Assembly: GCA_027339965.1 (NCBI GenBank)
Contig: DAHWNL010000034.1
Location: forward strand, 32,001 to 96,000
Reading direction: 5' to 3'
Length of the DNA stretch: 64,000 bases
Source of the DNA: Granulicella sp.
GTDB lineage: Bacteria; Acidobacteriota; Terriglobia; Terriglobales; Acidobacteriaceae
This document shows positions 36,174 to 59,837 of this stretch, one piece after another. The notes below the pieces were generated by a model. It was not told the origin of the DNA, did not search any database, and saw only the letters and a program-made list of their open reading frames with translations. A program made the position numbers and the translations under genes. Each line of letters starts with the position of its first letter. Position 1 is the stretch's first letter.

Positions 36174-36202
36174 CCAGAACTCCCTCTTTCCAAAAGCGGG
36201 AA

Positions 36203-36227
36203 GGCTGCACGGAACGACCGTGCAGCC
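36203..36227 (-). terminator. Hairpin between convergent genes, probable terminator
   Basis: GGCTGCACGG-aacga-CCGTGCAGCC perfect 10-bp stem; followed on the minus strand by TTCCCGCTTTT. Confidence 0.65.
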
Positions 36228-36251
36228 CCGGCGTCGCATGGATGTTGCTCT

Positions 36252-37121: not shown

Positions 37122-37281
37122 CTCGTCTCCTCCCGGCATCAAGTTGGGCTTCTTGTTGCTCTACAAAGCGTTGGAAAATAAGATGCGCATCAGGCGGGAG
37201 TGTTGCCCGCTCTCATCAAGATAGATACATCGTAAATCGATGTATTCCTCTCTTCCTGGTCTTCAGCATCCTAAGGAAAGT

Positions 37282-38505: not shown

Positions 38506-39552
38506 CTAAGAGAGCTCTTGCATCAGCCCTGCCAGAACCTCAGGACCGGGACGAACCCGAGCCTCGGAAGCCAGCGAAAGCGGCTCGTCAATCAGATTCA
38601 GCCGGGTCACAAAGTCCATTCCGTGCGGATTCACATAAAAGACCCCCGTCAACACCTCGCCTGAATCGTGCGCCTCAGTCAGCATACTGATCGCGCCCGT
38701 CTTGCTCGTCGGAGCATAATTTTCATGGATCTTCCGTAGACGCAAATGCGAGCCGTCATGCAGTTGCACGTCAACAGTGGTATTGGGATCGTAATCTACA
38801 GTTATATCCTCGAAGGGCGCGATGAAGCCGGCCTCGTTCACTGCCTCATCATGTTCCTTCATGTACCTGTAGCTCTTTGTGGAGCCCTCATGATCGTTGA
38901 AGGTGACACACGGCGAGATGATATCCAGCAGGACAGTTCCCTTGTGTGCAATGGCCGCCTTCAACATGGTGGAAAGTTGCTTCTTGTCCCCGGAGAACGA
39001 CCGGCCTACGAAAGTAGCACCTACCTGGATCGCCAGCGCGCAGATATCGATCGGCGGCATGTCATTGACCACACCTGTCTTCAGCTTGGACCCAATATCG
39101 GCCGTTGCGGAGAACTGTCCCTTGGTGAGCCCGTACACTCCATTGTCTTCGACAATGTAAATGATGGGCAGATTGCGGCGTAGCAGGTGCATGAACTGCC
39201 CGAGCCCAATGGAAACGGTATCCCCGTCCCCACTGATGCCGATGGACCGCATGGTCTTGTTGGCCAGCAGAGCTCCGGTCGCAACCGCAGGCATGCGTCC
39301 ATGCACGGAGTTGAAACTGAAAGACCGAGACATGAAGTACGCCGGCGACTTGGAGGAACAGCCGATGCCGCTCATCTTCATGACATCTTCCGGCGGAACG
39401 CCCATCTCGTAAAAAGCTTCGATCAAACGCTCGGAGATCGCATTATGACCGCAACCAGCACATAGGGTCGACTTGCCGCCACGATAATCAAGGATCTCAA
39501 GGCCGATCTGATTGGTCCGAGCAGGCGTGGATGGAACGGGTGAAGTTGCCAT
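38506..39552 (-). CDS. korB: 2-oxoacid:ferredoxin oxidoreductase beta subunit
   Basis: LCAGCGH, SGIGCSSK, HGRM, SGDGD, DNGVYGLTKGQ.S, SPCVTFN. Confidence 0.92.
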   Translation of the reverse strand: MATSPVPSTPARTNQIGLEILDYRGGKSTLCAGCGHNAISERLIEAFYEMGVPPEDVMKMSGIGCSSKSPAYFMSRSFSFNSVHGRMPAVATGALLANKTMRSIGISGDGDTVSIGLGQFMHLLRRNLPIIYIVEDNGVYGLTKGQFSATADIGSKLKTGVVNDMPPIDICALAIQVGATFVGRSFSGDKKQLSTMLKAAIAHKGTVLLDIISPCVTFNDHEGSTKSYRYMKEHDEAVNEAGFIAPFEDITVDYDPNTTVDVQLHDGSHLRLRKIHENYAPTSKTGAISMLTEAHDSGEVLTGVFYVNPHGMDFVTRLNLIDEPLSLASEARVRPGPEVLAGLMQELS

Positions 39553-39554
39553 GA

Positions 39555-41408
39555 TTACTTTCTTGCTCCTTCAAATTTGGTGATGGCCTCGCTAATCACC
39601 CTCGCCTCGATCGGCAAGCCGGCAAAGTAGGTGATCGAATGCAGCTTGACCGCCTCGGATGCGTCCAGGTCGGTCTTCAAAAGGTTTCGCATCTGACCGT
39701 CGCGGTTCTGTTCCACCACAAAGATGGTCTCGTGGCAAGCCACAAAATCATTGACCTCCTGGGTAAACGGATAGGCCCGAAGGCGCAGATAGTCGGTGTG
39801 GATTCTCGCTTCACGCTGCAACTGGTCCCGGCTCTCCAGCACTGCGGGATCGCTGCTCCCAAAGGCGATGATGCCGATCTTCTCCTTGCCCGTCCCCTTC
39901 AGTACGGGCTTGGGAACCAGAGTCTTTGCGGTTTCAAACTTGCGCGCCAGGCGCTGCATGTTCTGCGCATAGTCTTCCGGCCTCTCCGAGTACTGAGCCC
40001 TCTCATTCTTGCCCGTGCCGCGCGTGAAGTAGGCTGCCTTCGGGTGGTTAGTCCCAGGTAGCGTCCGGTAAGGAATTCCGTCGCCATCCACGTCCTGGTA
40101 GCGAGCGAACTCGCCCAGGTCTTCCAGTCGATTCGCGTTCAGGACCTTTCCTCGATTGATCGGCTTCTCTGGATACTCGAACGGTTCGGACATCCAGTTG
40201 TTCATCCCTAAATCCAGATCGCTCAGGATGAAGACGGGAGTCTGCAGCATCTCGGCGACGTCAAATGCCTCCACGGCTAGCTCGAAGCACTCCTTCACCG
40301 AGCCTGGAAGCAGCATCACGTGCTTGGTATCCCCGTGCGATAGCCCGGAGACAAAGGCGATATCGCCCTGTTGCGTGCGGGTAGGCAGACCTGTGGAAGG
40401 GCCCGTTCGCTGCACATCCAGGATGACGCCTGGAATCTCGGCAAAGTAGCCCAGCCCGGCGAACTCCGCCATCAGCGAGATGCCGGGTCCGGAGGTCGCT
40501 GTCATGGCGCGAGCTCCACCCCATCCCGCACCCAGCACCATCCCCATCGCGGCCAGTTCATCCTCGGCCTGCACAATGGCGAAGGTGGCCTTGCCGTCCT
40601 TCTCTACCCGATACTTCTTCATGTACTTGATCAGATCTTCCACTACGCTGGTTGAGGGTGTGATCGGATACCAGCTCACCACCGTCACTCCGGCGAACAT
40701 GGTGCCCATGGCGCAGGCCGCATTTCCATCCACGATGATCTTTCCCTGGGTCGCGTTCATCGGCTCAACCGTAAGCCCGTCCTGCTTGGTCAGCGCGCTG
40801 GAGGCATAATCAAAACCTAGCTGAACCGCTTTCCAGTTCAGGTCCGCCACCGCAGCCTTGCGGGCAAACTGCTGTCGCACAATGCCTTCCAAGCCCTTCA
40901 TGTCGATCGCCAAGAGCTGCGCCGCCACCCCCACATAGACCATGTTCTTGATCAGCTTGCGAACCTTCATCTCCGCACCGGTAGCTGCCGCCAGTTGATC
41001 AAAAGGAACCGGGTAGTAAACCACATCGGCGCGGCGATCTCCGATCGAGAAGCTCTCGTCATAGATGGCGGCCCCACCCGCCGGCAGTTTGCGAATATCG
41101 TCCAGCACGGTCTCCGGATTCAACGCAATCAACAGATCCACATGCCCCTTGCGCGCCACCCAGCCATCACGGTTGGCGCGGATCAGATACCATGTGGGCA
41201 GTCCCGCAATGTTGGATGGAAACAGGTTCTTGCCGGAGACCGGAACCCCCATGCGAAAGATGCTTCGGAGCAGGATGTTGTTGGCCGATTGCGATCCGGA
41301 TCCGTTTACCGTTGCGACCTGGATGGTGAAATCGTTCACCAATTTTTTGGGGTGAACAATCGAGTCCGCTGCGGACAGACTCTCAGCTTCGAGATTGGTG
41401 GTAGCCAT
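39555..41408 (-). CDS. korA: 2-oxoacid:ferredoxin oxidoreductase alpha subunit (gamma-alpha fusion)
   Basis: NGSGSQS, YPITPST, QAEDELAA, TSGPG, QRTGPSTGLPT, VEQNRDGQ; start at ATG 41408. Confidence 0.92.
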   Translation of the reverse strand: MATTNLEAESLSAADSIVHPKKLVNDFTIQVATVNGSGSQSANNILLRSIFRMGVPVSGKNLFPSNIAGLPTWYLIRANRDGWVARKGHVDLLIALNPETVLDDIRKLPAGGAAIYDESFSIGDRRADVVYYPVPFDQLAAATGAEMKVRKLIKNMVYVGVAAQLLAIDMKGLEGIVRQQFARKAAVADLNWKAVQLGFDYASSALTKQDGLTVEPMNATQGKIIVDGNAACAMGTMFAGVTVVSWYPITPSTSVVEDLIKYMKKYRVEKDGKATFAIVQAEDELAAMGMVLGAGWGGARAMTATSGPGISLMAEFAGLGYFAEIPGVILDVQRTGPSTGLPTRTQQGDIAFVSGLSHGDTKHVMLLPGSVKECFELAVEAFDVAEMLQTPVFILSDLDLGMNNWMSEPFEYPEKPINRGKVLNANRLEDLGEFARYQDVDGDGIPYRTLPGTNHPKAAYFTRGTGKNERAQYSERPEDYAQNMQRLARKFETAKTLVPKPVLKGTGKEKIGIIAFGSSDPAVLESRDQLQREARIHTDYLRLRAYPFTQEVNDFVACHETIFVVEQNRDGQMRNLLKTDLDASEAVKLHSITYFAGLPIEARVISEAITKFEGARK

Positions 41409-41756
41409 TGATAAATCCTTCCATCTTGTTGCGCCAATAGAGTTCTGCGGATGGTCGGGAAGGCAGGAAAGTTCGCGTTTCACTCCCGCAGCCGTCACAG
41501 CAACCGGCTCCTATTACGCCAACAGAGATTGTATTCCTTCCTCACAACAGTTCGCTATCAAGCCGAACCACGCCGCATCTGGAAATACCCCACCTTCATA
41601 AGGCGTCTCGGATGCGAAACAGCACCCTGCAGCCCATGTCGGCACCTTTTCGAACGAGTGGATCTGCTTGCTCCACAATCATTCCCTGGTGGTTTGCGCA
41701 GCATCCTGACTCACTGAAATGGCTGCCATCCACAGCAAGGATCCGCAGTGCGATTA

Positions 41757-44700
41757 TCAACCTCTAGGACCTGCGGGAGTATCAGGCGCAGAGGTTGAAA
41801 CACCCTTCTTCGAGGCCAAGTTGCCGGGCAAGGAACTGTCCCCAGAGGCGTATTCCTGATATAACCGCCATTTCCTCCGCACGTCTTCCTCTGCCTCTTC
41901 CAGAAGGCGCTTGGCAGCCTCAGGATGGCTGCGCGAGAGCATGGTATAGCGCGCTTCCTTGTAGCTATACTCCTTCAAAGCGATGGAGGGCGGTTTGGAA
42001 TCCAGTTGAAATGGATTTTTGCCCTGCGCCTGCAGCATCGGGTTGTAACGCATCAAAGGCCAGTATCCAGACAGCACAGCGTTCTTTTGTTGCTCCATTC
42101 CGAGGCCGAGATCATATCCGTGGGCGATGCATTGGCTGTAGGCGATGATGAGAGCCGGCCCGTCATAGGCTTCCGCCTCCTGGAACGCTTTTACCGTTTG
42201 GATATCGCTGCCGCCCATGGCCACCCGGGCCACGTAAACCGAACCATAACTGAGCGCCTCCATCGCAAGATCTTTCTTGCCCGTCAGCTTGCCTCCTGAA
42301 GCAAACTTGGCCACGGCCCCGCGCGGCGTCGACTTTGACATCTGTCCGCCGGTATTGGAGTACGTCTCTGTATCCAGCACCAGAATCTTCACATTTTTGC
42401 CCGAGCCCAGCACATGGTCCACGCCCCCAAAGCCGATATCGTAGGCCCAACCATCGCCACCCACCAGCCATACGCTCTTGCGCACCAACGAATCAGCCAG
42501 ACTGTGCAACAAGCGTGCCTCCGGCCTCTCCACTCCGTCTAGCCGGCCGCGGATTCGTTTCACTCGCTCTCGTTGCCGATCAATCCCGACTTCCGTCGTC
42601 TGATCGGCACTGAGCGCCGCTTCTACCAACTCCTCCCCAACAATCGCCGCTTGTTGCCGCAACAGAGCCTCAGCCTGCTCCTTTTGTTGATCCAGCCCCA
42701 GGCGAATTCCCAAACCAAACTCCGCGTTGTCCTCGAAGAGCGAGTTGGCCCAGGTCGGTCCGCGGCCCTCATCGTTCACCGTGTACGGCGTGGTGGGCAT
42801 GCTGCCGCCATAGATCGAAGAGCAGCCTGTGGCGTTGGCGATGTATAATCGGTCGCCGAACAACTGCGTGAGCAGCTTGATGTAGGGTGTCTCTCCGCAG
42901 CCTGCGCAAGCGCCGGAGAACTCAAACAGCGGCTCCAGCAGTTGAACATCCTTCACCTGATTGTGCGACAGAGTTGCTCGTTTCACCGGCGGCAGAGCCG
43001 CAAAGAACTTCCAGTTCTCCGCCTCCGGGGCGCGCAAAGGCTCTTGCGGTTCCATCTGCAGCGCCTTGCGCCGGGGACGGGCCGCCGGCTCCGTCCTGCT
43101 GACTGCCGGGCAGGTCTCCATGCACAGCCTGCACCCGGTACAGTCTTCGGGCGCAACTTGCAGGGCGTAGAGCTTCTTTTCCATATCGCGCCACTTCGGC
43201 TTGGCAGTCTTAAAGCTTTGCGGCGCCTCTGCCAGCAGAGTGCTGTCGAAGACCTTGGCGCGGATCGCCGCATGCGGGCACACCAGAACGCACTTCCCGC
43301 ACTGAATGCAAAGCTCCTGATCCCATACCGGGATCATCTGAGCGATGTTCCGCTTTTCCCAATGCGTGGTTCCCGTGGGGAAGGTTCCATCCGGAGGCAA
43401 CGCGCTTACCGGCAGCAGGTCGCCCCGGCCCGCAGCCATCTCCCCCAGAACGTTCGTAACAAACTCCGGCGCCGACGGCGAAAAGATCGGCAGCAGATCA
43501 ACCTGAGATGTGGCCTTCTCGGGCACTTTCACGCGATGGAGATGGGCCAGCGCGGCATCCACCGCGGCGTAGTTTCTCTGCACCACATCCCCGCGCCTTC
43601 CGTAAGTCTGCTGAATGGCCTTTTTGATCTGCTCAACCGCCTCGGCCAGCGGCAAAACACCGCTGATGGCGAAGAAACAGACTTGCATGACAGTGTTGAT
43701 GCGGCTTCCCATCCCCGTCTCGCGGGCCACGCCATAGGCGTCGATTACATAGAACTCTAGCTTCCGTTCCACAATGGTCTCCTGCACTTTGCGCGGCAGA
43801 TGTTCCCACACCTCCTCCGGTCCGTAGGGAGCATTCAATAAAAACACGGCGCCTGGAGCCGCGGCGGAGAGAATGTCCATCCGCTCCAGAAAGGAGAAGC
43901 TGTGGCAGGCCACAAAATTGGCTTGCGTGATCAGATACGTGGACAGGATCGGCGCCGGCCCAAAGCGAAGATGAGAGGTGGTCATCGAGCCCGACTTCTT
44001 GGAGTCATAAACGAAGTAGCCCTGGACGTAGTTCGGCGTCTCGTGCCCGATGATCTTGATCGAGTTCTTATTGGCGCCCACCGTCCCATCCGATCCCAGA
44101 CCGTAGAACAGGGCGCGGAAGGTGCGAGGATCCTCCGTGCAGAACTTCGGATCATACTCCAGACTGGTATGCGTAACGTCGTCTGTGATGCCGATCGTGA
44201 AGTGATTCTTCGGCTGCGGGTCCCATAACTCTTCGAAGATGCCCTTCACCATCGCCGGGGTGAACTCCTTGGAAGACAGACCGTAACGTCCGCCGATCAC
44301 CTTGGGAAGCCTGGCAAACCGCGGGCTCGCATCCTGCATGCTCTCGCCGATCGCCGTCAACACATCCTGGTACAACGGTTCACCAATAGCGCCCGGTTCC
44401 TTGGTGCGATCCAGCACCGCAATCGCTCGCACCGACTTGGGAAGAGATCTCAGGAAGGTCTCTGTGGCGAACGGACGGTACAGCCGAACTTTTAACAGGC
44501 CGAGCTTCTCTCCACGCGCATTCAAGTGGAGAATTGTCTCTTCGACCGCTCCGGCTCCTGAACCCATGATCACGATCACCCTATCCGCCTCGGGATCGCC
44601 CACATAATCAAACAGATGATAAGAGCGGCCGGTCAGCCGGGCGAAGTCATTCATCACGCGCTGCACGATCGAAGGACAAGCCAGATAATATGGATTCGAG

Positions 44701-45422
44701 GCTTCGCGCGCCTGGAAAAAGACATCGGGATTCTGTGCTGTTCCGCGCAAAATCGGGCGGTCCGCACTCAAAGCCCGCTTTCGATGAGCCTCGATCAGCT
44801 TTTCGTCCATCAGCGCGCGGATGGTCTCGTCGGAGATGCTGGCCACCTTGTTAATCTCATGCGAGGTTCGAAAGCCATCGAAGAAGTGCAGAAACGGGAC
44901 CCTCGCCTCCAGCGTCGATAGATGCGCAACCAGCGCAAGGTCTCCGGCCTCTTGCACCGAATCAGAGGCTAACATTGCATAGCCAGTCGCACGACAGGCC
45001 ATCACGTCCGAATGGTCCCCAAAGATCGAAAGGGCATGCGTGGCCACCGACCGCGCGGTGACGTGAACAACGTTCGACGTCAGCTCCCCGGCGATCTTGA
45101 ACAGATTGGGGATCATCAACAACAATCCCTGAGAGGCGGTGAAGGTGGTGCTCAAAGAGCCTGCTTGCAGGGCTCCGTGCATCGCGCCTGCGGCACCCCC
45201 TTCGCTTTGCATCTCCGCGATCAGCGGAACCGCTCCCCAAAGGTTCCGGCGGCCTTGTTCACTCCACTGGTCGGCCCACTCGGCCATCGTGGACGATGGA
45301 GTGATTGGGTAAATGGAGATTACCTCCGCCAGCCGGTAGGCCACATCCGCCACAGCCTGGTTGCCATCTACGATCTCGAACTGTTCTGAATTCAACTCAA
45401 CACCCCGCTGCTTCCCCACCAT
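41757..45422 (-). CDS. nifJ: Pyruvate:ferredoxin/flavodoxin oxidoreductase (single chain)
   Basis: YPITPSS, MQSEGGAAG, GLGSDGTVG, two CxxCxxCxxxCP motifs, GACAGCGE, GGDGW, YSNTGGQ; 1221 aa. Confidence 0.96.
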   Translation of the reverse strand: MVGKQRGVELNSEQFEIVDGNQAVADVAYRLAEVISIYPITPSSTMAEWADQWSEQGRRNLWGAVPLIAEMQSEGGAAGAMHGALQAGSLSTTFTASQGLLLMIPNLFKIAGELTSNVVHVTARSVATHALSIFGDHSDVMACRATGYAMLASDSVQEAGDLALVAHLSTLEARVPFLHFFDGFRTSHEINKVASISDETIRALMDEKLIEAHRKRALSADRPILRGTAQNPDVFFQAREASNPYYLACPSIVQRVMNDFARLTGRSYHLFDYVGDPEADRVIVIMGSGAGAVEETILHLNARGEKLGLLKVRLYRPFATETFLRSLPKSVRAIAVLDRTKEPGAIGEPLYQDVLTAIGESMQDASPRFARLPKVIGGRYGLSSKEFTPAMVKGIFEELWDPQPKNHFTIGITDDVTHTSLEYDPKFCTEDPRTFRALFYGLGSDGTVGANKNSIKIIGHETPNYVQGYFVYDSKKSGSMTTSHLRFGPAPILSTYLITQANFVACHSFSFLERMDILSAAAPGAVFLLNAPYGPEEVWEHLPRKVQETIVERKLEFYVIDAYGVARETGMGSRINTVMQVCFFAISGVLPLAEAVEQIKKAIQQTYGRRGDVVQRNYAAVDAALAHLHRVKVPEKATSQVDLLPIFSPSAPEFVTNVLGEMAAGRGDLLPVSALPPDGTFPTGTTHWEKRNIAQMIPVWDQELCIQCGKCVLVCPHAAIRAKVFDSTLLAEAPQSFKTAKPKWRDMEKKLYALQVAPEDCTGCRLCMETCPAVSRTEPAARPRRKALQMEPQEPLRAPEAENWKFFAALPPVKRATLSHNQVKDVQLLEPLFEFSGACAGCGETPYIKLLTQLFGDRLYIANATGCSSIYGGSMPTTPYTVNDEGRGPTWANSLFEDNAEFGLGIRLGLDQQKEQAEALLRQQAAIVGEELVEAALSADQTTEVGIDRQRERVKRIRGRLDGVERPEARLLHSLADSLVRKSVWLVGGDGWAYDIGFGGVDHVLGSGKNVKILVLDTETYSNTGGQMSKSTPRGAVAKFASGGKLTGKKDLAMEALSYGSVYVARVAMGGSDIQTVKAFQEAEAYDGPALIIAYSQCIAHGYDLGLGMEQQKNAVLSGYWPLMRYNPMLQAQGKNPFQLDSKPPSIALKEYSYKEARYTMLSRSHPEAAKRLLEEAEEDVRRKWRLYQEYASGDSSLPGNLASKKGVSTSAPDTPAGPRG

Positions 45423-45448
45423 TCTCGGCGGCTGGGAGTGGTCCGAAT

Positions 45449-45490
45449 TGTGACCAATGTCACATGGATTTGATTCGTTTCTGATAAGCT
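45449..45490 (+). promoter_or_regulatory. CRP/FNR-family (or Rex-like) box plus extended -10 of the nuo operon
   Basis: TGTGA-ccaatg-TCACA at 45449-45464; TGaTAAGCT at 45482-45490. Confidence 0.7.
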
Positions 45491-45501
45491 AAAGGCGAGC
45501 T

Positions 45502-45873
45502 ATGGTGAATCACACGTATCTCCCGGTTCTTGTGCTCTTGATTGCAGGTGCGGCTTTCGCCATCGGTCCCCTGGCTCTTGCATGGCTATGGGCCAGGAAG
45601 TTTTCTCCACAAAAGACAGGCCCGACCAAAAACGCGATCTACGAATGTGGCTTGGAGTCCAACGGAGATGCCTGGATCAAGTTCAAGCCAGGCTATTACC
45701 TCTACGCCATTCTCTTTCTCATCTTTGACGTGGAAGCTGTCTTCTTGCTGCCGTTCGCCGTCGCCTTCGGGGGCTTCACTGTAGCGGAGTCCGTCTCCAT
45801 GCTTGTATTTCTGCTTCTCCTGGTCGAAGGACTCGTCTGGGCCTGGCAGAAGAACGTCCTTTCCTGGATCTGA
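45502..45873 (+). CDS. nuoA: Complex I subunit A
   Basis: YECG, FLIFDVE, three TM segments. Confidence 0.95.
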   Translation: MVNHTYLPVLVLLIAGAAFAIGPLALAWLWARKFSPQKTGPTKNAIYECGLESNGDAWIKFKPGYYLYAILFLIFDVEAVFLLPFAVAFGGFTVAESVSMLVFLLLLVEGLVWAWQKNVLSWI

Positions 45874-46013
45874 TTCCAGAATCCGTATCCTTCAAGCATC
45901 CACCAGCCATCGGGCCACCGCTGTCACGGCATCAAAGCTAAGGGAAAACCGGAAGCAGCTGCGGTTCGATTCTGCAAGGCCAACGGAAACATCCGCGCAA
46001 AGGGTTCTAAGGT

Positions 46014-46655
46014 ATGGACGAACAGCTAAAAAGTGAGTTGAGACGCCAGGGCGTAGTCGCCACTTCTCTCCAGGAGCTTTACAATTGGGGCCGCAAAAGC
46101 TCCATCTGGCCGCTCAACTTCGGCCTCGCCTGCTGCGCGATTGAGATGATCGCCACTACCATGGCGCGTTACGATCTGGCTCGCTTCGGAGCTGAGGTCT
46201 TTCGTCCCTCGCCGCGTCAGGCCGATCTGATGATCGTCGCTGGAACCGTCACCAAGAAGATGGCCCCCCAGGTGGTGCGTCTTTACAACCAGATGGCCGA
46301 GCCCAAGTACGTCATATCCATGGGCGCCTGCGCGATCTCCGGCGGGCCCTTCAAGCAGGGCTACAACGTGCTCAAGGGCATCGACCGCTATATCCCCGTG
46401 GATGTCTTTATCCCCGGCTGCCCTCCCCGTCCGGAGGCGCTGCTGGATGCGTTTTTGATGCTGCAACGCAAGATCGACGAGCAACAGCTCACCGGCCCCG
46501 AACGCCCCCGTCATCTTCAGGCGGAGCAACCAAGCGAGTTCATCGTGCCGCAATACAGCGAACACGACCTGATCCCCACGCGGAACGACACGATCTGGCA
46601 TGCTCCGCTGGTCAACATCTCAAACGCAGGCGCCAATGAATCTGGAAGAGATTAA
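46014..46655 (+). CDS. nuoB: Complex I subunit B (cluster N2)
   Basis: [27 protein letters not shown]. Confidence 0.96.
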
Positions 46656-47289
46656 AATCCAAATCGAAGCCAATGTTCCAGGCTGCTTCCTGGAGATCCT
46701 CCCCAACGCCAGTCCTTCCGGGCAGCACTCCCTGATTGTGGACACAGAGCATGCTCTGACCGTGGCCAGCTTTCTGCGAGATGGCGCCAACCCACGGTTT
46801 GATTACTGCTCCAACGTCACCGGCGTCGATTGGCCCCTCAAAGAGACCTCCGCCAAGCAAAAGACAAAAAAGATCGTTGACGGCGTGGAGAAGGAGGTGG
46901 AAGAAGTGGTCAAAACCTCCACTGGCAACTATCTAGAGGTGGTCTACCATCTGTTTTCTCTGGAAGATCGCCAAGGCCCTGTCGTACTTCGCATGCGCAC
47001 CGAGGATCGCGCAGAACGGGTTCACCTTCCTTCCCTGACTCCGGTATGGCGCAGTGCGGAGCTTCAGGAGCGTGAGGTCTATGATCTGTTCGGCATCGTC
47101 TTTGACGGCCACCCCGATCTGCGCCGGCTGCTGATGTGGGAGGAGTTCACGGACCACCCCATGCGCAAAGACTACGTCGACCCGGATGACTACGAGTACG
47201 AGCCAACCCCCCACGACGAGATTCTCAAGCGAACCCAGGCCCACTATGCGGCACAAGAACCACGGTCCGAAGCAGGGGAAGCGAGATGA
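46636..47289 (+). CDS. nuoC: Complex I subunit C
   Basis: [35 protein letters not shown]. Confidence 0.94.
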
Positions 47290-48446: not shown

Positions 48447-48546
48447 ACTTCAAGATGCAAAGCAAAGGAGCAACTCCGGATCGTTGCGGTTTGACCGGCG
48501 AGCCGTCACTTCAGACCAAAAATACAAAGTGTGTGGGAGGCTGCCT

Positions 48547-49245: not shown

Positions 49246-49299
49246 CCCTCTGGACGCCTATCGAAGAAAAAAGACTTTGTAGCGAACGGTAGCCAAATT

Positions 49300-50475: not shown

Positions 50476-50574
50476 CCGAGTGCTGATCATCAGCGATGCT
50501 CTTCATCCCTCGGACATCGGGTTCCATATGTTCATCCACCATCACCAACTCCGCAGAACTGGAAACGTCTTAAA

Positions 50575-51078
50575 ATGACTCTCTCCTTTGTGCTGCTCGC
50601 CGCCATCGCGATCCTCGGCGCCGCCGCGGCGATGAATCTCAAAAGTGCCGTCCACTGCGTTCTCGCGCTCACCCTGGGCATGGTCGGCTTGGCTGCTCTC
50701 TATCTCCAGTTAGGAGCTCAATTTGTCGGATTGACGCAACTGCTTGTCTACGTCGGCGCAGTCGCGATTCTGGCAGTCTTCGCCATTATGCTGACCCGCA
50801 GCAGAACTGGGGAGAGTGTCGCGCATGGCCCGGCCTCCTCCAGGATCTCGGGAGCGCTGACCGCGCTGCTGGTCTTCGCTGTGCTGGCCTGGGCGATCTT
50901 CACCGGAGTCTCCCCGCAGCCGCTCTCCGGCGCACAGCCGGAGGCCTCCGTTCGCGAGGTTGGCGTGGCCCTGATGCAGCGCTTTGTCCTTCCACTGGAG
51001 ATCATCGGCGTGCTCCTGACCGCGGCACTGATCGGAGCCGGCGTCCTCGCCATCGAAGAAAAAGGAGGAGATCGATGA
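50575..51078 (+). CDS. nuoJ: Complex I subunit J
   Basis: QLLVYVGAVAIL, LPLEIIGVLL. Confidence 0.93.
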   Translation: MTLSFVLLAAIAILGAAAAMNLKSAVHCVLALTLGMVGLAALYLQLGAQFVGLTQLLVYVGAVAILAVFAIMLTRSRTGESVAHGPASSRISGALTALLVFAVLAWAIFTGVSPQPLSGAQPEASVREVGVALMQRFVLPLEIIGVLLTAALIGAGVLAIEEKGGDR

Positions 51079-51386
51079 GCCCGCTCTCCGGCTACCTGCT
51101 CCTCTCCGCCCTTCTGTTCTCCATTGGCCTCTCCGGCGCACTCACCCGGCGCAATGCCATCCTGGTTCTCATTGGCATCGAACTCATGCTCAACGCTGCC
51201 AACCTGAACTTCATCGCCTTCTGGCGCTACAGTCCTCACCCGGAGATGCTCACCGGCGTGATGTTCGTCATCTTCTCCATCGGCATCGCCGCGGCAGAAG
51301 CCGCCGTTGGCCTCAGTATCATCGTTGCCGTCTACCGGCACTTCCGGACGACGGATCTCGACAAGATCAACTTCCTGAAGGGGTAG
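51075..51386 (+). CDS. nuoK: Complex I subunit K
   Basis: RRNA, IELMLNA, AAAEAAVGL. Confidence 0.95.
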   Translation: MSPLSGYLLLSALLFSIGLSGALTRRNAILVLIGIELMLNAANLNFIAFWRYSPHPEMLTGVMFVIFSIGIAAAEAAVGLSIIVAVYRHFRTTDLDKINFLKG

Positions 51387-51497
51387 GCGCTACATCATGA
51401 ACGTACGACCTGGCAACATCTTCAACACCGCAACCGCCTGCGTTGTCGACAAAAAACCTGGCTCTCTTTCTCACCTGCAACTCTTGACTGGCGCTCA

Positions 51498-53615
51498 ATG
51501 AACTGGATCGTGCAAAATCTCTGGCTGATTCCTGCGTTACCCCTGCTTGCGGCGGGGATCATTGCCCTTACCCCGCAGAAGGGCCACGTACGCGGAGCTG
51601 CTCTCGCCATCGGTTCGATGGGCATCTCCTTGCTTCTCTCGATCTGGGCATTTGCGCACGTGCTATCCCTGCGCGGCAGCGGCCAACTCACCACTCAGGT
51701 CTTCAACTTCCGCTGGTTCCAGTTTGGCAACGACTGGCTGTCGCTCGGCTGGGTCTTGAATCCCCTCACCGCGGTCATGCTGGTCATGGTCACCTTCGTG
51801 GGCCTGCTGATCTTCATCTTCAGTGTCGGCTATATGGCGCACGATGAGAACTTTACTCGGTTCTTCTGCTTCCTTGCCCTCTTTGCCGGGGCCATGCTCG
51901 GCGTCGTTATCGCCAACAGCCTGCTACTGCTGTTCATGTGCTGGGAGATCGTTGGCTTGACATCCTATCTCCTGATCGGCTTCTGGTATCACAAGCCCAG
52001 CGCCGCCGCCGCCTGCAAGAAGGCATTCATCACCACCCGCATCGGCGATCTGCCCTTCTTCCTCGGCATGGTCTGGCTCTACTCCCAAACCGGAACTCTG
52101 CTCTTCTACAACAATGGCGGCGGATGCATTGAGCCAAGCGCCATCACCCACATGCTCTCCCAAGCCACGCCCCTGGGAATCTGCGCGGCCACCGCCATCG
52201 CCCTGCTCGTCTTCTGCGGAGCTGTGGGCAAGAGCGGACAGGTTCCGCTGCACGTCTGGTTGCCCGACGCCATGGAAGGCCCCACGCCCGTCAGCGCGCT
52301 GATCCACGCCGCCACTATGGTCGCCGCCGGCGTCTTTCTGGTCGCTCGCGTCTACCCTCTCATGAGTGCGCAGCACTCCATCAACGGCATGCTGACTACC
52401 TCAGCCGCCCTGCAGGTGGTTACCTGGGTTGGCGCCATCACGGCTTTCTTTGCCGCCACCATCGCCGTCGCGCAGTGGGACATCAAGCGGATTCTGGCCT
52501 ACTCAACCGTCTCCCAGCTCGGCTATATGATGATGGGCCTGGGAGTTGGCGGTGTCGCGGTTGGAATCTTTCACCTCATCACCCACGCCTTCTTTAAATC
52601 CCTGCTCTTCCTCGGCGCCGGCTCCGTCATTCACGGCTGCTCGGACGAACAGGATATTCGCCGCATGGGCGGCTTAGCCAAATACATGCCGGTGACCTTT
52701 GCCGCTTATGCGGTCGGCATGCTCGCCCTATGCGGCTTTCCGCTTTTCTCCGGCTTCTGGAGCAAGGATGAGATCCTGCATGCGGCCAGCACCTGGAACG
52801 TCTCCCACGTGCCGTATCTTCTCGGCGCAGCAGGAGCTCTACTGACGGCCTTCTATATGTCCCGCCAGGTGATCTACGTCTTCTTCGGAACCCTTCGCGC
52901 GGCGCCGATCGCCCATCAGGGCGCTCACGGAGCCAGTCTCGCTCCAGCCCATGCGGATGCTCACCACCATGCTTCGGGAGTCCCGCATGAAAGCCCTGCT
53001 GTGATGACAGTCCCTCTCGTGCTGTTGTCCATCTTCGCCGGGCTGCTCGGCTTTGTCGGAACAGCCGCTTGGCCCTGGTTCCAGTCCTTTGTGGAGGACG
53101 CTCCGCTCAAGCTGGACTTTGGCGCTTTTACCCAAGGCGGAATCCTCCCCGTCATGCTGACCTCCTCGGTGATCGTCCTGCTCGGCCTTGGTTTAGGTTG
53201 GTGGTTTTACGGTCGCCGGCCCTTGGAAGGAACCGACGCTCCCGACAACCTTGGGAGGCTTGCGCCCTCCGCCTTCAGCTTCCTCGGTCACGCTGCCTAT
53301 GTGGATGCGCTCTATGGAGCCACCTTCATTCGTCTCAATACGCTCTTCTCCAAGATCTCCGATTGGTTTGACCGTTGGATCTGGAACGGCGCCGTCAAGA
53401 CGGTGACCCAAACGGTCTTTGGATTTGCTCACTTGGACAACTTCATCGATACACACGTGGTGAACTCAGGCTTTGACGAAGGGTGCGAAGGCGTCTCCGG
53501 CGGCGGAAGGCTCCTAGCATTGCTCCAGGCAGGCCGTATTCAGGGATATCTCAAGATCATCGCAGGCGCGTTGGTTGTGTTCACCGTCCTGCTGCTATGG
53601 AAGGCACGCATATGA
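51498..53615 (+). CDS. nuoL: Complex I subunit L with an elongated amphipathic helix
   Basis: WEIVG, GKSGQVPLHVWLPDAMEGPTPVSALIHAATMV, HAFFKS, WSKDEI; 705 aa. Confidence 0.96.
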   Translation: MNWIVQNLWLIPALPLLAAGIIALTPQKGHVRGAALAIGSMGISLLLSIWAFAHVLSLRGSGQLTTQVFNFRWFQFGNDWLSLGWVLNPLTAVMLVMVTFVGLLIFIFSVGYMAHDENFTRFFCFLALFAGAMLGVVIANSLLLLFMCWEIVGLTSYLLIGFWYHKPSAAAACKKAFITTRIGDLPFFLGMVWLYSQTGTLLFYNNGGGCIEPSAITHMLSQATPLGICAATAIALLVFCGAVGKSGQVPLHVWLPDAMEGPTPVSALIHAATMVAAGVFLVARVYPLMSAQHSINGMLTTSAALQVVTWVGAITAFFAATIAVAQWDIKRILAYSTVSQLGYMMMGLGVGGVAVGIFHLITHAFFKSLLFLGAGSVIHGCSDEQDIRRMGGLAKYMPVTFAAYAVGMLALCGFPLFSGFWSKDEILHAASTWNVSHVPYLLGAAGALLTAFYMSRQVIYVFFGTLRAAPIAHQGAHGASLAPAHADAHHHASGVPHESPAVMTVPLVLLSIFAGLLGFVGTAAWPWFQSFVEDAPLKLDFGAFTQGGILPVMLTSSVIVLLGLGLGWWFYGRRPLEGTDAPDNLGRLAPSAFSFLGHAAYVDALYGATFIRLNTLFSKISDWFDRWIWNGAVKTVTQTVFGFAHLDNFIDTHVVNSGFDEGCEGVSGGGRLLALLQAGRIQGYLKIIAGALVVFTVLLLWKARI

Positions 53616-55180
53616 GCCCCGCTACGAGCCCTATTCCCTGGATTACGACGCTGACGGCGCTTCCCCTGGTAGGGGCCCTCCTGGTGCTCGCTTTGGGCAG
53701 AAACAAAGCCATGGCGCGCTGGACGGCGCTAGCGTTCAGCCTTGTTGCCTTGGTCTTTACCCTGATCCTCTGGCACAACTTCAACTCCGCGGCCGCTGCC
53801 TTCCAGTTTCAAGAGATCCACACATGGATTCCCTCGCTCCATGTTGACTACCGCGTTGGAATCGATGGCCTCGGCCTGCTGATGCTCCTGCTCACCGCCG
53901 TCGTGATTCCCATCAGCGTCTTGGCTTCCTGGCATGTCGAACACAAGGTTGGGTTGTATTTCTCTCTGGTCCTGGCCCTGCAGGCATGCCTCTTTGGCAC
54001 CTTCACCGCCCTTAACTTCTTCCATTGGTTCATCTTCTGGGAACTGGGCCTGATTCCTGCCTTCTTCTTGGTCAAGCTTTGGGGAGGCCCGGGCAGCGCC
54101 AAAGCCGCCATGCAGTTCCTGGTTTACACCATGGTGGGCGGCGTGGCCATGCTGCTCTCCTTCCTGGCCATCTTCCTGGCTACGGGAACATTCGATTTCA
54201 CTGAACTGGCCACCATGGCTCAGAATGGCACTCTCATGCCGGCTGTGGTCGCCCGGCTCAACTGGCATCTTCTAACCCCGCAGCATGTGGCGATGATCAT
54301 CTTCTGCGGAGCTCTGCTCGGCTTCGCAGTCAAGGTTCCCTTGTTTCCCTTCCACACATGGCTGCCCTCCACCTACTCCGAGGCACCCTCAGGCGTTACC
54401 ATTCTGCTGACCGGAGCCATGTCAAAAATGGGCCTCTACGGCTTCCTGCGAATCCTGCTCCCGATCTTCAGCGCGGAGATGCAGCGCGCGCTCAACCTCC
54501 TGCTCTGGCTCGCTGTGGCCACCATTGTTCTGTCCGCTTACACCGCTCTGGCGCAGAAGGATCTCAAGCGCATCTTCGCCTACTCCTCCATCAACCACCT
54601 GGGCTACTGTTTGCTGGCGATCTTCGCAGTGGTCAGATTCACCGGCGGCGATCCTTTGCTCACCAGTCAGAAGTTTGCCGCCATCAATGGCGTCTTTCTG
54701 CAGATGTTCAACCACGGCCTTACCGCCGCCACCCTTTTCTGGTTTGTCGCCATGCTGGAACACCGCAGCGGCGGCCTGCGTGGTCTGGATGACTTCGGCG
54801 GCTTGCGCAAGGCCGTGCCGGTCTTCACGGGGCTGATGGGCATTGCGCTCTTCTCTTCTCTTGGCCTGCCCGGCCTCAATGGCTTTGTCGGAGAGTTCCT
54901 CATCTTCAAAGGCGTCTTCCCCCTCACGATGTGGGCCGCCTCGCTGTCGATCATCGGCCTGCTCATCACCGCCCTCTTCATTTTGGGCATCCTGCAACGT
55001 GTCTTTTCCGGTCCACTTAACGAGCGGTGGGCGCATCTGCCCGATCTCACCCTCGGCGAGCGCCTCGCGCTGATTCCCGTGATCGGACTCATGTTCGTTC
55101 TGGGTCTCTATCCCCAGTTGATCCTCGGCGTCGTCAACCACACCGCCATCCAGATGGCGCTACATCTGCGGACTTTCTGA
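53612..55180 (+). CDS. nuoM: Complex I subunit M, first copy (canonical charged residues)
   Basis: GIDGL, FWEL, AVKVPLFPFHTWLP, SKMGLYG, GFVGEF. Confidence 0.94.
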   Translation: MSPATSPIPWITTLTALPLVGALLVLALGRNKAMARWTALAFSLVALVFTLILWHNFNSAAAAFQFQEIHTWIPSLHVDYRVGIDGLGLLMLLLTAVVIPISVLASWHVEHKVGLYFSLVLALQACLFGTFTALNFFHWFIFWELGLIPAFFLVKLWGGPGSAKAAMQFLVYTMVGGVAMLLSFLAIFLATGTFDFTELATMAQNGTLMPAVVARLNWHLLTPQHVAMIIFCGALLGFAVKVPLFPFHTWLPSTYSEAPSGVTILLTGAMSKMGLYGFLRILLPIFSAEMQRALNLLLWLAVATIVLSAYTALAQKDLKRIFAYSSINHLGYCLLAIFAVVRFTGGDPLLTSQKFAAINGVFLQMFNHGLTAATLFWFVAMLEHRSGGLRGLDDFGGLRKAVPVFTGLMGIALFSSLGLPGLNGFVGEFLIFKGVFPLTMWAASLSIIGLLITALFILGILQRVFSGPLNERWAHLPDLTLGERLALIPVIGLMFVLGLYPQLILGVVNHTAIQMALHLRTF

Positions 55181-55182
55181 TT

Positions 55183-56691
55183 ATGCTTGCTTGGACGATC
55201 TACCTATCCTTTCTTGGAGCACTGGCGCTTCTGCTGTTGCCCAGCCGCAGCGCCACCTTGGCGAGGTTGCTGGCATTGCTGGTCAGCGTCACCACCTTTT
55301 CGCTTGCTCTCATGGGATTCCTCCAGCATCGCTCCGGCGAGATGTTCACCGTCGCCGGCGTTCCCTGGATTCAATCCCTGGGCATCCAATATTCCCTTAA
55401 AGCCGACGGTATCAGCTTGACTCTGCTTCTACTTACCGGTGTTATCGGCATTTGCGGCGTTCTTCTGTCCTGGGATATTAACGTTCGCGTCAAGGAGTTC
55501 TTCGCCTTTTACCTGGTGCTCATCGGCGCCGTCTACGGCGTCTTCCTCAGCTACGACCTCTTCCTCCTCTTTGTCTTCTACGAAATTGTCGTCATCCCCA
55601 AGTACTTCCTGATCGCCATCTGGGGCTCAACGCGGCGGGAGTACGGAGCCATGAAGCTGGTGATTTACTCCTTCATCGGCAGCGCCATGGTCCTGGTTGG
55701 TCTTGTCGCCGCTTATGTCTGCTCTGGCTCCAGAAGCTTGTCTCTGGACTACTTGGCCGGTTACCACTTCTCGCCACACTTCCAGATGTGGGCGTTCCCT
55801 CTGGTCTTCACCGGCTTTGCCGTTCTTGCCGGTATGTGGCCCTTTCACACCTGGGCCCCCACCGGACACGTCGCTGCGCCCACTGCTGCTTCCATGCTCC
55901 TGGCCGGCGTCGTCATGAAGCTCGGGGCCTATGGATGCCTTCGAGTCGCCATGACGCTCTTCCCTCTCGGATTGGGTCCATGGGGCTTTCACGTCCTCGG
56001 GTTTGGATCCTGGCGTGACGTCTTTGCCGTCCTGGCCGTGATCGGCATCATCTACGGCGCGTTGGTCGCCCTGGTGCAGAAGGACTTCAAATTCGTCATC
56101 GGTTACTCCAGCATCAGCCACATGGGCTTTATTCTGCTGGGCTTGATGACGTTGAATCAGATTGGCCTCTCCGGTGCCGTCGTGCAGATGGTCTCCCACG
56201 GTATCCTCGCAGGATTGCTCTTCGGCGTGGTCGGCCGCATGGTCTACGCTCGCACCCATACCCGGGAGCTGTCGGCCCTGGGCCCCATGCACCTCAGCAA
56301 GGTCATTCCCTTTGCCGCAGCTACTTTCGTCATCGCCGGCATGGCCAGCATGGGGCTGCCCGGATTCAGCGGTTTTGCTGCCGAACTCATGATTCTCATC
56401 GGCGTCTGGCGCTCTTATCCAACCCTGATTCTCTTCGTGGGCGTCGGTCTGGTCGCCGGCGTTGCCTATATCTGGCGCGCCATGCAACAGGCATTCTTTG
56501 CCGGAGGGCCCCCGGCCACCGCTCCTCCCGATCATCCGCTTCCACCCATCTCCCTCCCGGAACGCGTGGCCGCTGTCATCCTCATCGCATCAAGCGTGAT
56601 CGTCGGCATCTTCCCCCAGATCTTTCTCAGTGTCATCCATCCAGCCCTGAATTCGCCGATGTTTGACGGCCTGCGCAAGGGGGGCTGGTAA
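55183..56691 (+). CDS. nuoM: Complex I subunit M, second divergent copy
   Basis: ADGIS, FYEI, AVLAGMWPFHTW, MKLGAYG, YSSISHMG, GFAAEL. Confidence 0.92.
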   Translation: MLAWTIYLSFLGALALLLLPSRSATLARLLALLVSVTTFSLALMGFLQHRSGEMFTVAGVPWIQSLGIQYSLKADGISLTLLLLTGVIGICGVLLSWDINVRVKEFFAFYLVLIGAVYGVFLSYDLFLLFVFYEIVVIPKYFLIAIWGSTRREYGAMKLVIYSFIGSAMVLVGLVAAYVCSGSRSLSLDYLAGYHFSPHFQMWAFPLVFTGFAVLAGMWPFHTWAPTGHVAAPTAASMLLAGVVMKLGAYGCLRVAMTLFPLGLGPWGFHVLGFGSWRDVFAVLAVIGIIYGALVALVQKDFKFVIGYSSISHMGFILLGLMTLNQIGLSGAVVQMVSHGILAGLLFGVVGRMVYARTHTRELSALGPMHLSKVIPFAAATFVIAGMASMGLPGFSGFAAELMILIGVWRSYPTLILFVGVGLVAGVAYIWRAMQQAFFAGGPPATAPPDHPLPPISLPERVAAVILIASSVIVGIFPQIFLSVIHPALNSPMFDGLRKGGW

Positions 56692-58187
56692 TGAACATCA
56701 TCGACTTTGGACAACTTCTTCGCCTTCTCTGGCCTGAGATCACCATCATCCTCGCCGCTCTGCTCGCCCTATCGGTCGATCTGGTCGCGCTCCGGCACTC
56801 TCACCTCCGCCTTCGCTTCCTGACTGCCAGCATCATCGCATCCGTCGGATGCCTTCTTGCGATCGACGAGCTTCTCCATGCCTCAACCCAAGGAGCGCTT
56901 CTCGATAAGATCCTCGTCACTAGTCCGCTGACACAAATGGTCCAGATCGCCTTGCTGGGCATCGCCATCCTGACCCTCTTTTTGGCAGTCGACGCCGATT
57001 TCACCGAACATGTCGGAGAATTCGTCCTTCTCATTCTTCTAGCCACTACAGGAATGATGTTCCTGGTGTCTGCCCAAGATCTCCTCGTCCTCTTCCTCTC
57101 GTTGGAGTTGCTCAGCCTGTCAGCCTATGCTCTTTCCGGTTTTGACAAACTCCGCCCCCGCTCCTCAGAGGCTGCGTTGAAGTACTTCCTCTTCGGCGGC
57201 ATGTCCGCCGCGTTCCTCCTGTTCGGTTTCAGCCTGCTTTACGGCCTGGCCGACTCCACCAACTTCGTGGACATAGCCTACGCGGTTCAAGGACATCCCT
57301 TCAGCCCCATCCTGATGCTGGCCATCGTCACCACCGTCATCGGCTTCGGTTTCAAACTCGCTGCCGCTCCCTTCCACTTCTGGGCGCCGGATGTTTACCA
57401 GGCCGCGCCCATCCCCAGCGCAGCCTTTATCGCCTCCGGTTCCAAGGTTGCCGGCTTCTTTATCTTCTTCCAACTTCTGGTTCTCGGGTTTGCCGGTGCG
57501 GAAGGCGCAGCATCCCCGCTTCACTTTCAGAGCGGCTGGGTGCCGGTTCTGGTGGCCGTCTCCGTCGTCTCCATGATTCTGGGTAATCTGATCGCAATCA
57601 CCCAGACGAGCCTCCGCCGCCTGCTCGCCTACTCCGCCGTAGCCCATGCCGGCTACATGCTGCTCGCGTACGTGGCCCATTCGGAGCAGAGCTTGGCAGC
57701 GCTTCTCTATTACGTTGTGACTTATGCTCTGGCGACGCTCGGGATCTTTGCAATCCTGGCGGTCACCGAGAAGCATCTGGGCAACGATCATATCGCTGAC
57801 CTGGCCGGCCTTAGCCGCCGCGCACCCTTTCTTTCAGCCTGTCTCTTCGTCTTAATTCTGTCTCTGGCCGGTATTCCACCGCTCTCTGGCTTCTTCGCCA
57901 AGTTCTTCCTGTTTGTCTCCCTTCTCAACACGAATCCAGGATCGAAGTTACTGCTTTGGCTCATCATCCTGGCCATCGGCATGAGCGCGGTCTCGCTTTA
58001 CTACTACCTGCGAGTCCTGAAGAGCGCCTTCGTCGCCGATGCGCCGCCTGAGGCCGCTCCAATCCAATCCACCATGCTCATGCGCCTGCTCGTAGGGGTT
58101 CTGGCGGGAGGAGTAATCGTTCTGGGATGCGCGCCCGAACTGATTCTTCATCAGATCCTGAAGGTCATCCAGGCCTCCGGCCTTTAA
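56691..58187 (+). CDS. nuoN: Complex I subunit N
   Basis: SLELLSL, EAALKYF, FKLAAAPFHFWAPDVY, SKVAG, SLAGIPPLSGFFAK. Confidence 0.96.
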   Translation: MNIIDFGQLLRLLWPEITIILAALLALSVDLVALRHSHLRLRFLTASIIASVGCLLAIDELLHASTQGALLDKILVTSPLTQMVQIALLGIAILTLFLAVDADFTEHVGEFVLLILLATTGMMFLVSAQDLLVLFLSLELLSLSAYALSGFDKLRPRSSEAALKYFLFGGMSAAFLLFGFSLLYGLADSTNFVDIAYAVQGHPFSPILMLAIVTTVIGFGFKLAAAPFHFWAPDVYQAAPIPSAAFIASGSKVAGFFIFFQLLVLGFAGAEGAASPLHFQSGWVPVLVAVSVVSMILGNLIAITQTSLRRLLAYSAVAHAGYMLLAYVAHSEQSLAALLYYVVTYALATLGIFAILAVTEKHLGNDHIADLAGLSRRAPFLSACLFVLILSLAGIPPLSGFFAKFFLFVSLLNTNPGSKLLLWLIILAIGMSAVSLYYYLRVLKSAFVADAPPEAAPIQSTMLMRLLVGVLAGGVIVLGCAPELILHQILKVIQASGL

Positions 58188-59832: not shown

Positions 59833-59837
59833 CGCCC

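Follow-up and report, generated by a model that had tools for sequence, protein, structure and literature searches.

Which donor delivers electrons to a complex I that is encoded without nuoE, nuoF and nuoG, and in which direction the electrons flow, is the question raised by a locus of Granulicella sp. (Acidobacteriaceae; GenBank assembly GCA_027339965.1, contig DAHWNL010000034.1, positions 32,001 to 96,000). In this stretch of 64 kb, here called the window, twelve nuo genes on the plus strand are located head-to-head with nifJ and korAB on the minus strand, which encode two 2-oxoacid:ferredoxin oxidoreductases (OFORs). The operon encodes an intact complex I of the '2M' type, with two NuoM subunits, which is headless, being devoid of the NuoEFG N-module. 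The role proposed here, and considered rather probable, is forward ferredoxin-to-menaquinone proton pumping by a four-pump complex that would be co-regulated with nifJ and would receive its electrons from NifJ and KorAB through a free acidic ferredoxin. The locus is real, intact and of a published kind; added here are the OFOR neighbourhood, a candidate regulator site shared by nifJ and nuoA, and the mixed origin of the two NuoM subunits.

All 15 genes are in place with open frames, and the nuo genes follow the order A-B-C-D-I-H-J-K-L-M-M-N (45502-58187, plus strand), separated by -17 to 140 bp (Table 1). Profile searches recovered the gene content, strands and order given in a preliminary description of the locus, as well as the 79 bp between the ATG codons of nifJ (45422) and nuoA (45502) and the absence of nuoE, nuoF and nuoG from the 12-gene operon. 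The real start of nifJ is probably the TTG codon at 45395, resulting in a gap of 106 bp to nuoA, since related proteins begin about nine residues before a DGN motif and the ATG at 45422 lies inside a putative -10 hexamer. NifJ matched TIGR02176 over its full length and contains two [4Fe-4S] motifs and the thiamine pyrophosphate (TPP) domain. For KorAB, the alpha subunit scored above the broad model TIGR03710, and no substrate-specific model reached its cut-off in a test of 2-oxoglutarate specificity. When NuoD was aligned to E. coli NuoCD, the motifs HPSTH and YTDRLDY with the quinone-site His and Tyr were found and the NiFe cysteines were missing, as had been described. A group 4 [NiFe] hydrogenase was ruled out by the lack of CxxC in NuoD together with these His and Tyr residues.

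The 2M complex I class was reportedly defined by Chadwick et al. in 2018 (ISME J 12:2668). In the window, two TIGR01972 genes are present between nuoL and nuoN; their products are designated M1 (next to NuoL) and M2 (next to NuoN). NuoL carries the insertion of about 26 residues in helix HL: the segment D603-G679 comprises 77 residues in 78 of 78 rows of relatives, whereas the canonical NuoL of the same genome has 53 there, E. coli NuoL has 48, and a length of 52 was found for 63 of 65 single-M relatives. The clamp helix exceeds that of single-M complexes by 24-29 residues. The 11 core subunits are intact with their coupling residues, the sole exception being K234 of M2, and in NuoA, H, J, K, L and N every charged residue that was tested matches E. 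coli. A few related loci (for example L014/L109 and L061/L117) belong to both locus samples analysed, and the row counts slightly overstate independence for that reason. Four antiporter-like subunits (NuoL, two NuoM, NuoN) are encoded. In the 2M class both NuoM subunits would reside in one complex, which would translocate five protons per two electrons. The second nuoM, the long NuoL helix and the published gene orders agree with the earlier view that this architecture is not new.

The source genome is 98.9% complete and contains a second, canonical nuo operon with nuoF and nuoG on contig C80 (C-numbers denote contigs of this genome, L-numbers related loci). This nuoF is the only one in the genome, and no orphan N-module was found. 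Canonical nuoB and nuoI are located away from the C80 operon, at C49:8258-8683 and C69:20746-21360, and no nuoB or nuoI is listed for the canonical operon in the Acidobacterium capsulatum table either (PMC11636273).

The closest known system is the 'unusual' 2M complex I of A. capsulatum 161 (ACP_2565-2576), which belongs to the same family and has the gene order A-B-C-D-I-H-J-K-L-M-M-N by locus tag; it also lacks nuoEFG, is accompanied by a second, canonical operon, and shows increased nuoA and nuoB at low oxygen (PMC11636273). In contrast to the present proposal, it was called an NADH dehydrogenase, and in the available part of that report neither a ferredoxin donor nor a regulator site is named. 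In Chloroflexus aurantiacus (Caur_1987-1976) and C. aggregans (Cagg_1620-1631), a 12-gene cluster with duplicated nuoM and lengthened NuoL is present beside a canonical 14-gene operon (PMC3150298, PMC8004040); in C. aurantiacus nuoI precedes nuoH and the gene order is the same as in the window (PMC3150298). However, Chloroflexus belongs to another phylum, and the available parts of both reports mention no OFOR neighbourhood or CRP/FNR site. The Nitrospira 2M complex I and the Manganitrophus complex I_3 share the extra NuoM, the HL insertion of about 26 residues and a proposed ferredoxin partner, but occur in autotrophs using the reductive tricarboxylic acid (TCA) cycle, for which the reverse direction was proposed, and have another gene set, clade 3 lacking nuoH in the cluster (PMC6606698, PMC12342949, PMC9040806). 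The headless 11-subunit complexes, such as cyanobacterial NDH-1, Bacteroides/Prevotella Nuo and Moorella Nqo, likewise lack an N-module, and for them ferredoxin was shown (cyanobacteria) or proposed to be the donor (PMC3144371, PMC13040438). The Bacteroides/Prevotella complexes also share the loss of the lysine on transmembrane helix (TM) 7 of NuoM and a Lys-rich NuoI hairpin; headless complexes differ by a single NuoM, a short helix (52 residues) and a Met at the TM5 site where M2 has Lys. No report on a purified 2M complex was found in the papers searched, and its donor, direction and proton yield stand as hypotheses.

Electron entry, neighbouring oxidoreductases and the two NuoM subunits

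The hairpin between the two clusters of NuoI is Lys-rich and comprises 33 residues in 89 of 94 loci. In the window it contains a KK pair, whereas the canonical NuoI of the same genome has a 33-residue hairpin without KK and with a net charge of -1, and that of E. coli has 27 residues; the lengthened, Lys-rich 2M hairpin resembles the one in Bacteroides/Prevotella. A ferredoxin-binding role is attributed to the NdhI hairpin. No support for this role was given in the available part of one report (PMC12170339). The C-terminus of NuoI (window positions 49100-49245) was compared across about 100 loci: a predicted helix is conserved there, while the Ala/Pro/Lys-rich tail behind it varies and has a length of 20-90 residues.

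No ferredoxin gene is present in the window, as had been noted, but one was identified on contig C17, coding for a small dicluster-type ferredoxin of 86 residues with a net charge of -10; the motif scan was confined to this type. The ferredoxin domain of NifJ has a net charge of +4. Flavodoxin, NifH, RuBisCO and Rex were searched for in the genome and not found. Free ferredoxin is the simplest link, since the complex can do without NifJ and since KorAB depends on a carrier. Ferredoxin is likely to be the electron donor of the complex, and the input from the ferredoxin side that had been suggested for this locus is supported by the OFOR neighbourhood and by the charges.

In a sample of 300 family genomes, with M2 identity above 60% taken as presence, the complex was identified in 36; in a phylum-wide sample it occurred in 8 of 22 family members and in none of 278 other genomes. 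From the even family sample 34 of the 36 loci were retrieved, 27 of them with nuoA and 25 with enough upstream DNA. An OFOR gene lies within 600 bp of nuoA in nine of these 25 (four nifJ, three window-type korAB and two a second korAB family about 30% identical to it), and two further loci have an OFOR within 9 kb, one of them Vor-type. Among 80 loci picked by similarity, the gene was adjacent at the same distance in 29 of 41 informative Acidobacteriota loci, so that the linkage seen in the window recurs in relatives. The closest relatives of the locus are found in Acidobacteriaceae, followed by Verrucomicrobiota; one homologue search returned close relatives only.

In the tree, nifJ-adjacent loci fall into two separate clades and the korAB arrangements, which are both divergent and co-directional, into three further groups. 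Since three enzyme families occupy the neighbour position, more than one event is implied; either repeated recruitment or repeated loss may fit this pattern. With midpoint rooting, the acidobacterial sequences form one clade beside the verrucomicrobial ones, and the Acidobacteriaceae are likely to have acquired the complex laterally. A korA orthologue is present in 34 of the 36 genomes with the complex and is near-core in the family (252 of 300), while nifJ was not found in 15 of the 36. The korA and nifJ tallies take in two unpublished genomes, on which no claim rests. In the closest relative (L001), korAB alone is present, without nifJ, and the nuo operon is intact. In L002, a 44-codon nifJ remnant (E 3e-10) and a decayed regulator box were identified between korA and nuoA (L002:6348-6705), showing that nifJ was lost from this arrangement. 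A corresponding remnant in L001 was hinted at by DNA alignment and was not significant by tblastn.

Across 114 loci, no dedicated ferredoxin or accessory gene was found beside the operon, except for one OFOR delta subunit. Among the 60 proteins scanned of 106 listed neighbours, no shared redox partner emerged beyond an acyl-CoA dehydrogenase and a dihydroorotate-dehydrogenase-like gene, both missing from the window. The former follows korB in korAB-adjacent loci (L119:14137-15327 and eight similar), the latter follows nifJ (L107:15028-16035 and four similar loci). In two loci of Chthoniobacterales (L046, L080) the operon is split, with nuoABCDI on one strand and nuoHJ(KL) divergent on the other. 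No report of OFOR linkage or of a CRP/FNR site for the acidobacterial 2M operon was found in the literature searched, although Chadwick et al. may already note OFOR linkage or the lysine loss. Together, the recurrent OFOR neighbourhood and the shared site support independently, at the genomic level, that the complex of this heterotrophic lineage has a ferredoxin partner.

The two NuoM subunits exceed the TIGR01972 cut-off of 264 bits (M1 447, M2 411). With just 31% identity to each other, they are explained neither by a duplication made in the assembly nor by recent tandem copying. M1 retains E144, K234, K265 and E407 in 79 of 79 rows, as a canonical NuoM does; M2 retains E144, K265, H322, H348 and E407. 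In a FastTree phylogeny of 118 NuoM rows, M2 belongs to one clade of 29 sequences lacking K234, and M1 is placed among the sequences bearing it. The relatives of M2 in this clade are the sole NuoM of their operons: all 75 loci covering nuoL to nuoN, which were picked by the K234-less pattern and include Prevotella nigrescens and Bacteroides finegoldii, read L-M-N, and K234 is lost in 82 of 82 NuoM of this related single-M clade. Because these are the only NuoM in their operons, the loss of K234 probably predates the duplication. Judged by sequence, M1 and M2 differ in origin; the pump that was added is probably M1, which is of canonical NuoM type. The 2M complex probably arose when such a NuoM and one 25-residue helix module were added to a headless complex that already lacked the TM7 lysine.

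On TM5 of M2, Lys140 is invariant (81 of 81 rows). A lysine at this site was found in 10 of the 29 K234-less and in none of the 89 K234-bearing rows, and the Bacteroides-type set has Met. A relocation of the TM7 lysine to TM5 in M2 is plausible. The predicted M2 model has a normal NuoM fold, with a predicted local distance difference test (pLDDT) score of 92.6 and a TM-score of 0.92 to 8QBY_M. Two NuoM of different origin, one lacking the TM7 lysine and bearing a new TM5 lysine, offer a natural experiment on the number of pumping modules.

A candidate CRP/FNR-type site between nifJ and nuoA

A perfect palindrome of the CRP/FNR family, TGTGA-N6-TCACA, is present in the divergent region, and nifJ and nuoA are probably switched on together at low oxygen from this one candidate site. 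With up to two mismatches, the box was identified in all 18 nifJ-adjacent loci of relatives, versus 9% of shuffled sequences, and in 1 of 11 korAB-adjacent and 2 of 16 verrucomicrobial loci. Of the 14 family loci that have no OFOR neighbour, 8 also carry it ahead of nuoA, versus about 10% of shuffles, and in the second nifJ clade two boxes are present in four loci. The genome contains 11 perfect copies with the N6 spacer, versus 0-2 for other spacer lengths. In E. coli, the CRP site of a class II promoter is located about 21 nt before the -10 hexamer. Measured from the box, the -10-like hexamer of nuoA is located at 20 nt and that of nifJ at 22 nt, in agreement with class II geometry. In the window and in 8 of the 18 relatives, 15-17 nt separate the box from a TCTGnTA element; in five this element lies farther away and in five it is unmatched.

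Eight CRP/FNR genes scored over the cut-off, two of them coding for proteins with an N-terminal Cys cluster and a RETVxR-type (CRP-type) recognition helix; both carry boxes upstream of themselves. Fnr proteins of Bacillales bind TGTGA-N6-TCACA. An oxygen-sensing FNR-like protein with a CRP-type helix would activate nifJ and nuoA via the single box. A Rex box was rejected, no Rex having been found in the genome. Among 53 near-perfect genomic copies, 37, mostly intergenic, were listed and 18 of the surrounding regions annotated; near-perfect copies precede two Usp genes, hcp/ric, haem synthesis genes, multihaem cytochromes and an NrfD-type complex. About seven TGTGA-N6-TCACA-like sites are clustered at C21:9000-24500 (L090), which looks like the core of a regulon, with genes for a Cys-rich CRP/FNR regulator, a multihaem cytochrome, a Usp, an AhbD-like radical SAM protein and protoporphyrinogen oxidase, and citrate synthase-ScpC. 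A perfect box just upstream of sucA (C6:78611-78630) could mean that the NAD-linked enzyme is repressed by the same regulator.

The co-regulation expected in the preliminary description is supported for nifJ and nuoA, which have the candidate site in common, but not for the island in its entirety: a distinct TACAAT hexamer, also conserved, precedes korAB, the box is missing there, and korAB is probably expressed separately from its own promoter. In A. capsulatum, 2M nuoA and nuoB increased at low oxygen by log2 fold changes of 3.18 and 2.84, and nuoC rose as well (PMC11636273). Three metatranscriptome contig sets yielded short pieces from other organisms only.

Direction of electron flow and competing explanations

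In the proposed function, two parallel chains would operate in the cell. The NAD-linked one would start at pyruvate and 2-oxoglutarate dehydrogenase and end at the canonical complex I; the genome encodes the E1 subunit of 2-oxoglutarate dehydrogenase and one further E1. The ferredoxin-linked one would run from NifJ and KorAB, via the 86-residue ferredoxin from C17 and the Lys-rich tip of NuoI, through the two NuoI clusters and N2 to menaquinone. Futalosine-pathway genes for menaquinone, a second korAB and two haem-copper oxidases are also present. The redox span is about 350-430 mV from ferredoxin to menaquinone and about 250 mV from NADH to menaquinone. Calculated from midpoint potentials for 150-180 mV, two electrons can move 2.7-3.3 protons when they pass from NADH to menaquinone and 4.7-5.7 when a -500 mV ferredoxin supplies them, and the latter range places a five-proton complex near equilibrium. 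The larger span would therefore pay for a fifth proton only near equilibrium, where the complex is probably reversible. Forward flow is favoured because some carriers of the operon are heterotrophs and because searches revealed neither a dedicated fixation pathway nor a nitrogenase.

In an alternative that is regarded as doubtful, a proton-motive force (pmf) would drive electrons from menaquinol to ferredoxin, and NifJ and KorAB would serve as carboxylases, be it for anaplerosis, for the assimilation of acetate or in an oxidative TCA cycle run in reverse. At 180 mV, five protons correspond to 450 mV, which is enough to reduce a -500 mV ferredoxin with menaquinol, while four are not. A DabAB CO2 transporter, a citrate synthase-ScpC operon behind a perfect box, and isocitrate lyase hits that are only partial would suit this direction, which was also published as a hypothesis for Nitrospira (PMC6606698, PMC12342949). 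A reversed oxidative TCA cycle uses the same enzyme set as the oxidative one, direction aside (PMC13147460). However, neither RuBisCO nor NifH was found, the ATP-citrate lyase search was blank with an equally silent control, and heterotrophs such as A. capsulatum carry the operon. ScpC is not associated with the complex (3 of 36 genomes with it versus 31 of 264 without). Moreover, reduced ferredoxin is produced in excess when the TCA cycle runs oxidatively with KorAB. A more elaborate version, in which a low-oxygen FNR-like regulator would switch on a pmf-driven ferredoxin generator, NifJ and KorAB would fix CO2 aided by DabAB and possibly fed by Fe(II) via Cyc2, and the TM7 lysine would have moved to TM5 in the distal NuoM, is improbable. 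If true, a family considered to be heterotrophic would fix CO2 by the reversed oxidative TCA route.

It is also quite unlikely that the complex borrows NuoEFG from the canonical enzyme and works as an alternative NADH dehydrogenase, its OFOR neighbours reflecting shared low-oxygen regulation only. A complete nuoEFG set is present in the genome, the box precedes nuoA even without an adjacent OFOR, and sharing of N-module genes was suggested for Chloroflexus (PMC3150298); against this stand the NADH-menaquinone span, which is too small for five protons, the NuoI hairpin unlike the canonical one, and the presence of three OFOR families as direct neighbours. Docking of NifJ on the peripheral arm in place of the N-module, which the preliminary description had considered for the NifJ ferredoxin domain, would fit nifJ being a direct neighbour in two separate clades and sharing the box, and 114 loci containing no free ferredoxin gene apart from the delta subunit. 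This idea is nevertheless very unlikely, because nifJ is missing or deleted at many loci, including the 15 genomes, the L002 fragment and L001, because KorAB, which lacks a ferredoxin domain, depends on a carrier in any case, and because an acidic ferredoxin (-10) is encoded elsewhere, while the NifJ domain (+4) would face a Lys-rich hairpin. Finally, ferredoxin may be the donor with only three antiporter modules pumping, M2 being a spacer or relay and M1 restoring a four-proton yield. A coupling wave that was proposed for complex I involves the E144/K234 pair (PMC9271201), K234 is missing from M2, and five protons are energetically marginal. Yet the same loss occurs in the related clade where this NuoM is the only one, M2 keeps its other key residues and the extra TM5 lysine, and the equivalent NuoN K217A variant of E. 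coli kept 68-109% of pumping (PMC13073174); this variant of the proposal is seen as a minor possibility.

Several observations weigh against forward, co-regulated pumping by four modules. At a pmf of at least 180 mV, five protons per two electrons exceed the ferredoxin-menaquinone span, which favours reverse flow or fewer protons, and Leu replaces K234 in 81 of 81 M2 rows. Linkage is a minority state, 14 of the 25 family loci having no OFOR upstream, and no OFOR is adjacent in 16 informative verrucomicrobial loci; in A. capsulatum, por (ACP_2686) and korAB (ACP_0328/0329) are not adjacent to the operon by locus tag (PMC11636273). OFOR genes by far outnumber the complex (korA 252, nifJ 141 and 2M 36 of 300 genomes), which makes the complex an optional sink rather than an obligatory partner, and nifJ is only weakly enriched with it (21 of 36 versus 120 of 264, kin not being independent). 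A consensus promoter scan found nothing in the nifJ-nuoA intergenic region. The box also precedes sucA, citrate synthase-ScpC, efflux and unrelated genes, and since several of these are not obvious low-oxygen genes, the signal could be carbon-related. At low oxygen, A. capsulatum 2M nuoD-N fell (log2 fold change -0.16 to -2.72), as did distal genes of the canonical operon, korAB decreased (-1.8, -2.1) and por changed little (+0.75) (PMC11636273). These data support an inducible promoter, not induction of the whole chain. For a direct test, the 86-residue ferredoxin, NifJ, KorAB, the 16-bp site, cultured A. capsulatum and Granulicella sp. S156 (L028) are the reagents named.

Features of the locus and neighbouring genes

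Table 1. Coordinates of genes and putative regulatory elements in the window.
Feature	Position	Strand	Remarks
korB	38506-39552	-	2-oxoacid:ferredoxin oxidoreductase beta, TPP-binding; PF02775; TIGR02177 203 bits, below cut-off 262
korA	39555-41408 (longest ORF to 41498)	-	fused gamma-alpha, no ferredoxin (delta) domain; TIGR03710 570 bits, above 483
putative korA promoter, TACAAT -10-like hexamer	41528-41533	-	in conserved block, no CRP/FNR box; function inferred
nifJ	41757-45422 (probable start TTG 45395)	-	homodimeric pyruvate:ferredoxin oxidoreductase; TIGR02176 1773 bits, cut-off 911
putative GAGAAT -10-like hexamer for nifJ	45421-45426	-	22 nt from box; similar hexamers at about the same spacing in close relatives; inferred
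perfect CRP/FNR-family palindrome TGTGA-N6-TCACA	45449-45464		nifJ-nuoA divergent region
extended -10-like element TG-n-TAAGCT for nuoA	45480-45490	+	hexamer 20 nt from box
nuoA	45502-45873	+	PF00507; D79 and E81 kept
nuoB	46014-46655	+	NF011394 349 bits, above 312; N2 cluster: tandem CC and two Cys
nuoC	46639-47289 (longest ORF from 46600)	+	PF00329
nuoD	47286-48446	+	quinone-site His/Tyr kept, no NiFe CxxC
nuoI	48550-49245 (longest ORF from 48484)	+	two [4Fe-4S] motifs, lengthened Lys-rich inter-cluster hairpin, Ala/Pro-rich tail
nuoH	49300-50475	+	six acidic key residues kept
nuoJ	50575-51078	+	profile match; residues match E. coli
nuoK	51075-51386	+	E36 and E72 kept
nuoL	51498-53615	+	all nine tested charged/His residues; lengthened lateral helix 53304-53534
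nuoM next to nuoL (M1)	53612-55180	+	E144, K234, K265, E407 kept; TIGR01972
nuoM next to nuoN (M2)	55183-56691	+	K234 replaced by Leu215, invariant Lys140 on TM5; TIGR01972
nuoN	56691-58187	+	E133, K217, K247, K395 kept; TIGR01770 363 bits, above 333

Elsewhere in the genome, the DabAB inorganic-carbon transporter is encoded on C28 (L085:2708-6738) with a divergent LysR gene, in a genome in which no RuBisCO was found. On C17 (L082:3684-11446), a Hyf/Ehr-like cluster (HyfB, HyfF-like, NuoCD-like, NuoB-like) is located behind an ArsR-like gene, and its large subunit showed no NiFe CxxC motifs in the alignment. In the flanks of the window (30221-38328 and 58759-62894), genes for BshC, a Nudix hydrolase, a PolX-PHP protein, a ThiO-like oxidase and an RND efflux pair were identified, of which a relative (L001) showed the ThiO-like gene alone next to the cluster.

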